Positions 9,273-11,230 of a stretch of DNA of 54,140 nt are shown here, piece by piece; position 1 is the stretch's first letter; every line of letters begins with the position of its first letter. The DNA is taken from positions 1-54,140 of the forward strand of contig CAZQLQ010000006.1 in NCBI GenBank assembly GCA_964594415.1. The letters run 5' to 3'. The notes below the pieces were generated by a model. It was given only the letters and a program-made list of their open reading frames with translations. It did not search any database and was not told where the DNA came from. This DNA is from an uncultured Candidatus Saccharibacteria bacterium (lineage in GTDB: Bacteria > Patescibacteriota > CPR2 > UBA1875 > CAIMLA01). A program made the translations under genes and the position numbers.

Positions 9273-9345
9273 TGGTGAACCCTACCCTCCTTCGTAATAC
9301 TACGGAACGGGCAGGCAGGACTTCCTCCAGAGGCGGATAAACTTC
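9273..9345 (-). pseudogene. Degenerate tRNA-Ala 3' fragment interrupted by palindromic inserts
   Basis: tggtgaaccctac-[cctccttcgtaatactacggaacgggcaggc]-aggact versus tggtggaccctacaggact at 9402. Confidence 0.55.
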
Positions 9346-9369: not shown

Positions 9370-9391
9370 AAAAAACCCACCACGTTGGGTG
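9370..9391 (-). terminator. Terminator candidate downstream of the tRNA-Ala locus
   Basis: accca-acgtgg-tgggt hairpin plus TTTTTT on the minus strand. Confidence 0.55.
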
Positions 9392-9401
9392 AGTTGTTTG
9401 A

Positions 9402-9497
9402 TGGTGGACCCTACAGGACTCGAACCTGCCACCTCCTCGGTGCAAACGAGGCGCTCCCCGCCCGTACCGAACGGTACGTTCGGGCGGGTACCAGATG
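9402..9497 (-). pseudogene. 3' part of the outer (split) tRNA-Ala(TGC): D-loop with 32-nt insert, anticodon arm, T arm, acceptor 3' strand and CCA
   Basis: Reverse complement catctggta[32 nt]gagcgcctcgtttgcaccgaggaggtggcaggttcgagtcctgtagggtccacca; lacks nt 1-12. Confidence 0.9.
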
Positions 9498-9501
9498 GAC
9501 T

Positions 9502-9631
9502 TAATAAAATAGAGTTTGCTGAATAATTGGTGGACCTGACAGGACTCGAACCTGCTACCTCCTCGGTGCAAACGAGGCGCTCTACCAGGTGAGCTACAGG
9601 CCCGCGTTATTCAGCAAACTCTATTTTATTA
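9502..9631. repeat. Perfect 25-bp inverted repeat (9502-9526 / 9607-9631) enclosing tRNA-Ala
   Basis: taataaaatagagtttgctgaataa and its exact reverse complement. Confidence 0.95.
9528..9603 (-). tRNA. tRNA-Ala(TGC), intact inner copy
   Basis: 76-nt cloverleaf, G3:U70, anticodon loop TT-TGC-AC, encoded CCA. Confidence 0.97.
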
Positions 9632-9635
9632 TCAG

Positions 9636-9878
9636 TTATTCTTCGATAATTTTGTTTATAAACCTTCTACCAGCCGCCGATTTAAAGTACTTTTCTCTAA
9701 TCAGCGCCTCGTTCAAAGTTTCAACTTTTTCATAGTATTTAATTTTTAATTTACCCTTCATTTTAGAAGTAGTTTTTGTGTGACCTCCGTTATGCTCCTG
9801 CAACCTTCTTTTGAGATTGTTTGTGTATCCTTTATATAAGGTGCCGATTTCGTCTTCTAAGATATATACGTAATACAT
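9636..9878 (-). CDS. Small stand-alone GIY-YIG endonuclease (YhbQ/UPF0213-like)
   Basis: YYVYIL...LYKGYT-NL-RRL-EHN...YYE...EA-IREKYFKS; conserved Y/R/H/E residues present. Confidence 0.92.
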   Translation of the reverse strand: MYYVYILEDEIGTLYKGYTNNLKRRLQEHNGGHTKTTSKMKGKLKIKYYEKVETLNEALIREKYFKSAAGRRFINKIIEE

Positions 9879-9901
9879 GCTTGATATTTTACCACAACCT
9901 T

Positions 9902-9962
9902 AGGCGCTCCCCGCCCGTACCGAACGGTACGTTCGGGCGGGTACCAGATGAGCTAAGGGCCC
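9902..9962 (-). pseudogene. 5' part of the outer (split) tRNA-Ala: acceptor 5' strand and D arm with 32-nt insert
   Basis: gggcccttagctcatctggta[32 nt]gagcgcct; acceptor gggccct pairs perfectly with agggtcc of the 9402 piece; 9902-9950 is identical to 9449-9497. Confidence 0.9.
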
Positions 9963-10169: not shown

Positions 10170-10198
10170 ATTTTACTCTTTTAAAAGGATTTTTTCAA
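10170..10198 (-). promoter_or_regulatory. Sigma70 promoter upstream of the split tRNA-Ala/GIY-YIG unit
   Basis: TTGAAA-17-TAAAAT. Confidence 0.6.
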
Positions 10199-10765: not shown

Positions 10766-11230
10766 GCAGTTCTCACATTCGTTCGAACAATAAACCCCTT
10801 GAAAAACTGTTCGTCCCGAGGACCGACTATTTTAAAAAGAAGTTCAGTTTTTCTTGAACTTTGCATCACTTTCTTTCAAGAGAAAGTGAGAAAAGAAATT
10901 AGATTCTTCGACTTCGCTCAGAATGACACTATTTTGTCATCCTGAGGGAGCGGAGCGATTCGAAGGATCTAGAGATCCCTCGACAGGCTCTCCGACGGAG
11001 TCCGACACGAACTCATCGGAGTCGTCGGACGGGATGACATAGGGAAGGAGTGGATCCCTGGAATGACGCCAGGGATGACCACAGCACTATAAAAAAGTGC
11101 TGGGCGAAGCAGAGAAATAGGTAGATCCCCGCGTGCGCGAGGATGACATAGGGAAGGAGTGGATCCCTGGAATGACGCCAGGGATGACAAAAAACATTAT
11201 AAAAGTAGTTCTCTGATTCGCCTCGAACAT
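10766..11230. repeat. Second mosaic cluster of REP-like palindromes
   Basis: Same units as 1-470; direct repeat of about 40 nt (catagggaaggagtggatccctggaatgacgccagggatgac) at ~11038 and ~11146; 10795-10839 matches 54087-54131 with one mismatch. Confidence 0.9.

Follow-up and report, generated by a model that had tools for sequence, protein, structure and literature searches.

In the 54,140-nt stretch of DNA analyzed here (the window; contig CAZQLQ010000006.1 of an uncultured Candidatus Saccharibacteria bacterium), a composite tRNA-Ala locus carries two copies of a 32-nt palindrome, which we call pal, on either side of a gene for a small GIY-YIG nuclease. We found pal to be a discrete DNA insertion unit, nearly invariant across at least four phyla and strongly enriched in remnants of tRNA (and 5S rRNA) genes beside which the gene in question is also present intact. 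Our working interpretation, which we hold with about even confidence, is that pal may be the cognate hairpin site recognized in single-stranded DNA by the neighboring nuclease, with repair copying moving the hairpin or the whole cassette. This pairing of nuclease and hairpin is suggested by their co-occurrence and by analogy to the NTS/SRM repeats and their Ssn nucleases.

To collect further copies, we searched one genome per species for the pattern CCCGCCCGTACCNNNNGGTACNTTCGG; all pal counts given here are lower bounds. In what follows, G000 is the genome of the window, and other G and L numbers denote other genomes and loci. A filled site is longer than its empty counterpart by exactly 32 bp, and the target is not duplicated. 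When pal was deleted in silico from 29 listed copies, the flanks aligned ungapped across the junction to an intact tRNA at 90 to 100% identity (most at 100%), and the matching tRNA usually sits in the same locus. Filled and empty pairs were also recovered outside tRNAs from paralogous repeats, with L072/L079 identical at 28/28 positions and further cases at L100, L056/L110, and L066/L068. The junctions prefer TN|NA symmetrically: position -2 is T, and position +2 is A, at 75 of 121 distinct sites each. At the non-tRNA sites alone, each was found at 49 of 91 (P = 5e-7), and the two occurred jointly at 27 sites versus 7.4 expected. The tRNA D-loop site GGTA|GAGC fits this preference, and the site in the window is TA|GA.

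In total, 29 of the 130 listed copies (22%) lie in tRNA-derived DNA representing at least 10 isoacceptor types, with pal in mixed orientation relative to the tRNA (17:12). Their junctions fall mostly after nt 21 to 24, and the others after nt 7, 10, 13, 17 to 18, 26, 50, 57, or 61. Removal of pal restored an intact tRNA in none of the 130 listed copies; in tRNA contexts, pal sits in truncated duplicates beside the working gene. The same arrangement occurs at a 5S rRNA gene in L131, where the intact gene (417-523) adjoins an inverted 5S fragment with pal (at about 640). Two further copies at L109:161-309 lie in 5S-like DNA that is now below the Rfam threshold. The remaining listed copies are intergenic and often nested in other repeat families. 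Among closely related tRNA-Arg cassettes, pal is found at nt 18, 50, 57, or 61; thus, it turns over and reinserts, occupying different tRNA positions among close relatives.

At least 130 copies were found in at least 120 stretches from Patescibacteria, Bacteroidota, Bdellovibrionota, and Planctomycetota, and 90 of the 130 listed copies match the canonical 32-mer at 32/32 positions. Within Patescibacteria, the carriers belong to Kaiser-, Lipton-, Moran-, Nomura-, Vogel-, Wolfe-, Yanofsky-, and Saccharibacteria and to Peregrinibacteria; elsewhere, they include many Bacteroidota, Bdellovibrionales, and Planctomycetota (Scalindua), among them Cecembia lonarensis LW9, which is an isolate, and Ekhidna, represented by a complete chromosome. 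The prevalence is low and patchy (4 of 301 Patescibacteria, 0 of 250 random Bacteroidota). The earlier note on this DNA, made from the sequence alone, had advised searching the genome for the 32-mer and weighing whether it is confined to this locus. Within G000 it is: no further copy was found in the 863-kb genome, even with 3 mismatches, and none in the same-family relatives searched. In contrast, when 40 relatives were searched by BLAST, genomes from other families (G033, G016, and G025) proved to carry the identical 32-mer, G022 and G033 have variants of it, and identical copies extend to other phyla. We failed to find pal in IMG/VR viral contigs, PLSDB plasmids, or GenBank phages; no vector from these collections accounts for the identity across phyla. 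Both copies in G000 are identical to each other and to copies from other phyla, whereas the surrounding DNA is 23% diverged from that of G003, a genome of the same family and another genus. This indicates either a recent arrival or conversion, or strong constraint. In the literature searched, no published description of pal or of its tRNA-GIY-YIG layout was found.

As DNA, the best structure of pal has an 8-bp stem and an inner helix in the AACG/CGTT register, while as RNA it has a 7-bp stem and the GUACC/GGUAC register (-20.3 kcal/mol). The two alternative inner pairings described in the earlier note are thus both real, each belonging to one kind of fold; its 7-bp closing stem holds for the RNA fold, but the stem can reach 8 bp (CCCGCCCG/CGGGCGGG). 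The C16:G22 pair covaries to T:A in 9 listed copies (5 distinct sequences), with the intermediates T:G in 4 and C:A in 2. This covariation supports the CGAAC/GTTCG helix, the minimum-energy register of the DNA fold and not that of the RNA fold. Together with the mixed orientation, it indicates a role at the DNA level. Longer relatives of pal (L175, L192, L111, and L183) keep both 16-nt halves, each minus one base, with a variable loop between them; they thus form with pal a family of bulged hairpins, of which pal is the shortest.

The window belongs to a Patescibacteria-like genome of 863 kb in 21 contigs with 37% G+C. On its minus strand, the 16S rRNA gene (12860-11401) is followed by tRNA-Ile (10655-10582), an 82-amino-acid open reading frame, and the composite tRNA-Ala locus (Table 1). 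The last begins with nt 1 to 21 of an outer tRNA-Ala, pal, and GAGCGCCT, after which the tRNA sequence ends; it continues with the GIY-YIG gene and an intact inner tRNA-Ala(UGC) between two complementary 25-nt arms, and closes with CATCTGGTA, the second pal, and GAGCGCCTCG, running on to the 3' end of the outer tRNA. A resident tRNA-Ala has thus been split in its D arm by a cassette consisting of the nuclease gene and its own tRNA-Ala between inverted-repeat arms, and the D-loop segment with pal (nt 21|22) is repeated over 49 bp on the two sides of the cassette. On the minus strand, the sequence of the outer tRNA is GGGCCCT TA GCTC ATCTGGTA, then pal, then GAGC G CCTCG...; the two parts of this tRNA, joined, form a canonical 76-nt tRNA-Ala(UGC) with G3:U70, which places pal between A21 and G22. 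The earlier note had put the palindrome at this point of the outer tRNA in both repeats and had found the inner tRNA free of it, and in all of this it was right: the exact 32-mer (CCCGCCCGTACCGAACGGTACGTTCGGGCGGG on the plus strand) is present at both places, with 0 matches expected in shuffled sequence. The start of the outer tRNA is at 9962 rather than 9965. The two copies lie within perfect 49-nt direct repeats 453 nt apart, and rebuilding the outer tRNA would require the loss of both pal and the 453-nt segment. The cell relies on the inner tRNA-Ala.

The locus is nested in the same way in two other genomes. In G003, the orthologous locus (77% identity) has no perfect repeat; its 5' fragment carries a 28-nt hairpin between nt 9 and 10, and its 3' remainder carries a 36-nt hairpin between nt 21 and 22 that has the pal stem and another loop. 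In G021, which belongs to another family, the repeat-cargo-repeat plan recurs with a 40-nt repeat containing two unrelated hairpins. In the relatives' loci (n = 14), tRNA-Ile is followed by a plain tRNA-Ala in all except G021 (L018), and among the loci compared the cassette was found only in G000, G003, and G021. The plan of G021, with its other hairpins, favors a scenario in which the insertion accompanied the 49-nt duplication. However, the 49/49 identity of the repeats may equally reflect recent gene conversion, since in G003 the two hairpins of the orthologous locus differ and a perfect repeat is lacking.

The nuclease encoded between the two pal copies of the window is 80 amino acids long and ends about 10 residues past its PF01541 domain, with no extra DNA-binding domain and with a C-terminal motif, KSAAGRRF. 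The solved structures nearest to it are the UPF0213 single-domain proteins 1ywl and 1zg2, and no family in NCBIfam or PHROGs matched it. Upstream, pal lies 31 nt before its ATG; downstream, pal lies 147 nt past its stop, beyond the inner tRNA. Flanking of the nuclease gene by pal on both sides was also found in L179, L097, and L177. When open reading frames within 1 kb of pal were clustered, GIY-YIG was the sole recurrent protein family among the matches listed. A GIY-YIG gene lies at most 700 nt from 15 of the 29 listed tRNA-context copies, and all of these belong to one clade of about 80-amino-acid proteins with the motif K-S/T-A-A-G-R-R-F. Two stereotyped layouts recur: a 5' tRNA fragment with pal in its D loop, the nuclease gene, and an intact copy of the same tRNA; or an intact tRNA, the nuclease gene, and a 3' fragment whose T arm, or DNA close to it, holds pal. 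In the isolate C. lonarensis LW9 (L083), a homolog of the window nuclease is encoded beside tRNA-Arg. A search with the protein added 20 loci, at Gln, Ser, Cys, Leu, Asn, and Tyr tRNAs, in which this plan recurs with other GC-rich hairpins. As a side observation, the pal-linked clade also forms tandem GIY-YIG arrays, with at least 13 copies at about 299-bp spacing in G407 (C2:365027-369130), 5 copies at 382 bp in G375 (C19:516155-517916), and 3 copies at 302 bp in L177 (Ekhidna chromosome, 5080340-5081177). The L177 unit consists of a tRNA fragment, a hairpin, and a GIY-YIG gene, and the array closes with one intact tRNA.

The type of hairpin tracks the C-terminal motif of the protein. In all 19 proteins whose associated hairpin is pal or has the pal stem, K[ST][AS][AS][GV]R[RK][FYW] stands near the C terminus, and none of the 20 other proteins in the tree has it. 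The pal-linked proteins share 37 to 56% identity with the window protein and form three supported clades (99/95, 99/98, and 84/84), while a single clade was not rejected by the approximately unbiased test (P = 0.22). A clade match of at least 80 bits was present in 14 of 19 other pal-bearing genomes (reached via solo copies) versus 7 of 36 pal-free relatives, and in 24 of 80 random Bacteroidota; these are base rates only, pal being too rare for a within-phylum 2-by-2 association test.

If pal and the nuclease are indeed partners, nicks beside the hairpin at the cassette borders would be followed by repair copying (gene conversion), carrying the hairpin alone, or the hairpin with the cassette, into DNA with short tRNA homology. 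The left end would be primed at ...GGTA, a circular or tandem donor would be copied once around, and capture at GAGC... would yield the repeat-cargo-repeat layout; immediate capture would leave a solo pal. The tandem cassette arrays (G407, G375, and L177) fit such repair copying.

Several points weigh against this pairing. About 100 of the 130 listed copies have no GIY-YIG gene within 700 nt, and the pal-bearing genomes G316, G330, G016, and G025, several of which are incomplete, have no strong clade match. About 30% of Bacteroidota have the protein clade, far more than have canonical pal (less than 1 in 250), and the clade is usually accompanied by other hairpins; the cassette L186 even combines a KSSAGRKW motif with an unrelated one. 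The correlation between clade and hairpin is biased because the pal-linked proteins were ascertained through pal. Pal lies outside the SRM consensus HGTCWYN(0-2)YYVSBRHN(0-5)WNVSBRGN(0-2)RNCYNB. It also occurs in both orientations relative to the tRNA and to the gene, while Ssn sites are directional (PMC11893778), and our interpretation leaves the use of both orientations unexplained. Finally, a nuclease without ligase chemistry leaves the precise, duplication-free insertion at nonhomologous sites unexplained.

A bolder version, which we consider speculative and rather doubtful, holds that pal and the KSAAGRRF mini-nuclease form a new mobile system, in which the nuclease would drive duplication-free homing of the 32-nt hairpin into TN|NA sites. 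Such sites would be exposed in single-stranded tRNA-gene DNA folded as a cloverleaf, and the cassette with its spare tRNA would travel along, the conserved tRNA serving as portable homology across phyla. If true, at least one family of the tiny palindromes that occur across phyla would thereby have its mobilizer.

Among the alternatives, the one that survives best is that pal is an autonomous tiny palindrome moved by host replication or repair or by another enzyme; it would accumulate in tRNA fragments beside GIY-YIG genes only because such dispensable, structured DNA tolerates insertions, and the nuclease would have no part in it. We regard it as a possibility to be taken seriously, if a minority one. 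It would account for the predominance of solo copies among those listed, many of them nested in repeats of Bacteroidota and Scalindua, for the few pal-bearing genomes without a strong clade match, and for the occurrence of both orientations. However, it would not lead one to expect that half of the copies in tRNA-derived DNA (the 22% of the listed copies given above) lie at most 700 nt from one protein clade, or that hairpin type follows the C-terminal motif of that protein. Furthermore, the TN|NA preference indicates an enzyme rather than slippage, and G000 has no Y1/RAYT transposase.

The earlier note had also suggested that the palindrome may be a resistance mark: a homing endonuclease would cut tRNA D-loop DNA, and pal would interrupt the target in the occupied allele and prevent recutting. 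It is true that pal lies within GGTA|GAGC, the most conserved stretch of tRNA genes, that the relatives have a cassette-free allele, and that SegB of phage T4 offers a precedent in a tRNA gene cluster (PMC2330249). Nevertheless, an uninterrupted, pal-free copy of the same tRNA adjoins the nuclease gene here and in almost all related loci, and the supposed cleavage target therefore remains exposed. In addition, pal also occupies T arms, nt 10, 13, and 18, fragments of 5S genes, and many sites outside tRNAs, and the 80-amino-acid protein has no DNA-binding domain. We consequently judge this explanation improbable.

Still less probable, in our view, is an RNA-level element, either a hairpin for processing or stability or an intron-like one, or a device in which the 5' arm of one pal copy would pair with the 3' arm of the other, loop out the 453-nt insert, and so allow the outer tRNA to be rebuilt. 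The strong RNA hairpin, the perfect tRNA-Ala formed by the joined outer halves, and the single promoter-like and single terminator-like sites that bracket the whole composite speak in favor of such an element. On the other hand, the other listed tRNA-context copies lie in truncated fragments from which pal removal restores nothing, both orientations occur relative to the transcript, and the covariation follows the DNA-fold register instead of the RNA minimum-energy fold. An Rfam scan of the window at gathering thresholds returned the 16S rRNA and three tRNAs only, with nothing at pal, and the likely nuclease promoter lies downstream of the upstream pal. In brief, pal is unlikely to be either part of a working tRNA or a mark that shields the locus from its own nuclease. 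An assembly or binning artefact or a chance palindrome, for which one could cite the 21 contigs of the genome, is a negligible prospect given the recurrence of the nested plan in G003 and G021, the identical 32-mer in more than 100 independent assemblies (an isolate and a complete chromosome included), and the zero chance matches expected.

Table 1. Features of the composite tRNA-Ala locus in the window (a dot marks features listed with no strand)
Feature	Position	Strand	Remark
pal in 5' fragment of outer tRNA-Ala, between nt 21 and 22	9910..9941	.	tRNA-sense (minus) strand: CCCGCCCGAACGTACCGTTCGGTACGGGCGGG
pal in 3' remainder of outer tRNA-Ala, same D-loop position	9457..9488	.	
49-nt direct repeat, copy 1	9902..9950	.	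minus strand: CATCTGGTA + pal + GAGCGCCT
49-nt direct repeat, copy 2	9449..9497	.	100% identical to copy 1
Outer tRNA-Ala(UGC), nt 1-21: acceptor 5' strand, D stem 5' strand, D loop	9942..9962	-	
Outer tRNA-Ala(UGC), nt 22-76	9402..9456	-	
Gene for 80-amino-acid single-domain GIY-YIG nuclease	9636..9878	-	Pfam PF01541, E = 2e-14, residues 1-70
TGgTAAAAT extended -10-like box	9886..9894	-	7 nt 5' of nuclease ATG, downstream of pal; read by eye
Inner intact tRNA-Ala(UGC), part of cassette, without pal	9528..9603	-	
25-nt perfect inverted repeat around inner tRNA, arm 1	9607..9631	.	
25-nt perfect inverted repeat around inner tRNA, arm 2	9502..9526	.	
Promoter-like site TTGAAA-17-TAAAAT, upstream of composite unit	10170..10198	-	consensus match only
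Terminator-like hairpin with T run, directly past 3' end of outer tRNA	9374..9395	-	

The TGgTAAAAT box ahead of the nuclease gene, which was not picked up by our -35/-10 scan, suggests an extended -10 promoter; if used, it would give a leaderless nuclease mRNA that does not include the upstream pal, and nuclease expression may therefore be independent of the tRNA promoter. ARAGORN called a tRNA-Ala at 9402-9477, an artefact that uses half of pal as acceptor and D arm, and the Rfam tRNA model found no match there. Hairpin-plugged tRNA fragments can thus give false tRNA calls and may inflate tRNA counts. Past the terminator, a third tRNA-Ala 3'-like fragment (9273-9345) is broken by other GC-rich hairpins, e.g., CCGCCTCTGGAGG, CCTGCCTGCCCG...

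The inverted repeat around the inner tRNA has counterparts in G003, where the arms are about 26 nt long and quite different in sequence, and in G021, as a 12-nt pair (ATTAAGTGCTTT), while relatives without the cassette have no inverted repeat around tRNA-Ala. It looks like a processing stem or a cassette border kept by compensatory change. Three other GIY-YIG paralogs of G000 also sit at RNA genes: one preceded by a 5' fragment of tRNA-Asp whose D arm holds two GC hairpins and followed by an intact tRNA-Asp (C2:380-953), one directly after the tmRNA gene (C8:28434-29164), and one between two tRNA-Ser genes (C10:15514-16008). A hairpin, CGTCAGC-TWNCG-CTGACG, lies directly 5' of tRNA-Asp and of its duplicated fragment (C2:381-400, 859-876) and directly 5' of the tmRNA gene (C8:28415-28433), the copy ahead of the intact tRNA-Asp being imperfect; stable-RNA genes of G000 may share this hairpin as a leader or a processing element.

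Of the known systems, the closest to the one described here is that of the Ssn nucleases, 94-amino-acid single-domain GIY-YIG proteins that bind hairpin repeats (NTS/SRM) flanking their own genes (Chenal et al. 2025, Nat Commun, PMC11893778). They cut single-stranded DNA just upstream of the hairpin, and their repeats are conserved across phyla (PMC11893778). Both systems have a single-domain GIY-YIG protein of about 80 to 95 amino acids, without an extra DNA-binding domain in the window protein, and hairpin repeats of 20 to 50 nt that flank the nuclease gene, often on both sides, with solo copies elsewhere and conservation across phyla. They differ in that the window nuclease belongs to another subgroup (KSAAGRRF versus K-x-W-K-R in Ssn), that G000 has 2 copies of pal versus hundreds for Ssn repeats, that pal is used in both orientations, and that pal is tied to split or duplicated tRNA genes, while the word "tRNA" occurs 0 times in PMC11893778. 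G000 also carries canonical SRM repeats (38 regex matches genome-wide versus 1 in a reversed control). On this contig they lie at 110-137, 264-291, 288-315, and 11121-11148, e.g., TGTCATTCCCGTGAAAACGGGAATCCAG, close to the Neisseria NTS consensus, and none coincides with pal. A further GIY-YIG paralog (C14:7789-8013) is embedded in arrays of SRM-like hairpins, and the window nuclease shares 35% identity with it (E = 4e-8). By this analogy, the window nuclease may be a member of a tRNA-associated sister group of the Ssn nucleases, with pal as its putative cognate hairpin. If so, pairs of Ssn-type nucleases and hairpins would extend to a new specificity class, with possible use as a site-specific cutter of single-stranded DNA, and the pairing would account for a widespread mode of splitting, duplication, and repair of tRNA genes, for which the literature searched has no description, among Patescibacteria, Bacteroidota, and further phyla.

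SegB of phage T4 (PMC2330249), which is a free-standing homing endonuclease of the GIY-YIG type encoded in a tRNA gene cluster, is similar in having its gene among tRNA genes and in the existence of cassette-free alleles in relatives. It differs in that SegB has DNA-binding modules and cuts double-stranded DNA, whereas the window protein has the catalytic domain only, and SegB has neither duplicated tRNA fragments nor a hairpin element; if homing were directed at the tRNA D loop, that target would still be available in the intact inner tRNA. A tRNA intron (group I or bulge-helix-bulge) was also considered and rejected, as no listed copy restores a tRNA, 32 nt is too short for a ribozyme, and there was no Rfam match.

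REP/REPIN elements (RAYT) and IS200/IS605 have short imperfect palindromes recognized as single-strand hairpins by a Y1 HUH transposase, and they insert beside a short target word without target duplication. Unlike Y1 transposases, GIY-YIG enzymes act without a covalent intermediate and are unable to rejoin DNA. Pal shares with the REP/REPIN-RAYT system its short palindromes, its duplication-free insertion, and an excess of gene-less copies over the enzyme gene (PMC3116915), but REPs are species specific while pal is identical across phyla. Mobilization of the REP/RAYT type was rejected for G000, where a Y1 HUH transposase (PF01797) is absent, the same search having matched 6 of 14 control genomes.

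Finally, the small dispersed repeats (SDR) of heterocystous cyanobacteria and the GC clusters of yeast mitochondria are reportedly tiny palindromic units of less than 40 nt with precise insertion. They are often nested in other repeats and have filled and empty sites, and we know of no mobilizer for either. Pal has all of these features, namely, a unit of less than 40 nt, filled and empty sites without target duplication, and nesting in repeats, and it differs from both in its candidate partner enzyme, its preference for tRNA fragments, and its cross-phylum distribution. Very small palindromic repeats abound (e.g., REP-like units, cyanobacterial SDRs, and mitochondrial GC clusters), and for most of them, to our knowledge, no way of moving has been established. 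With exact filled and empty sites, a TN|NA preference, and a small candidate enzyme, the question of movement becomes testable for pal with a few oligonucleotides and an 80-residue protein, and pal may thereby reveal how mini-palindromes move.

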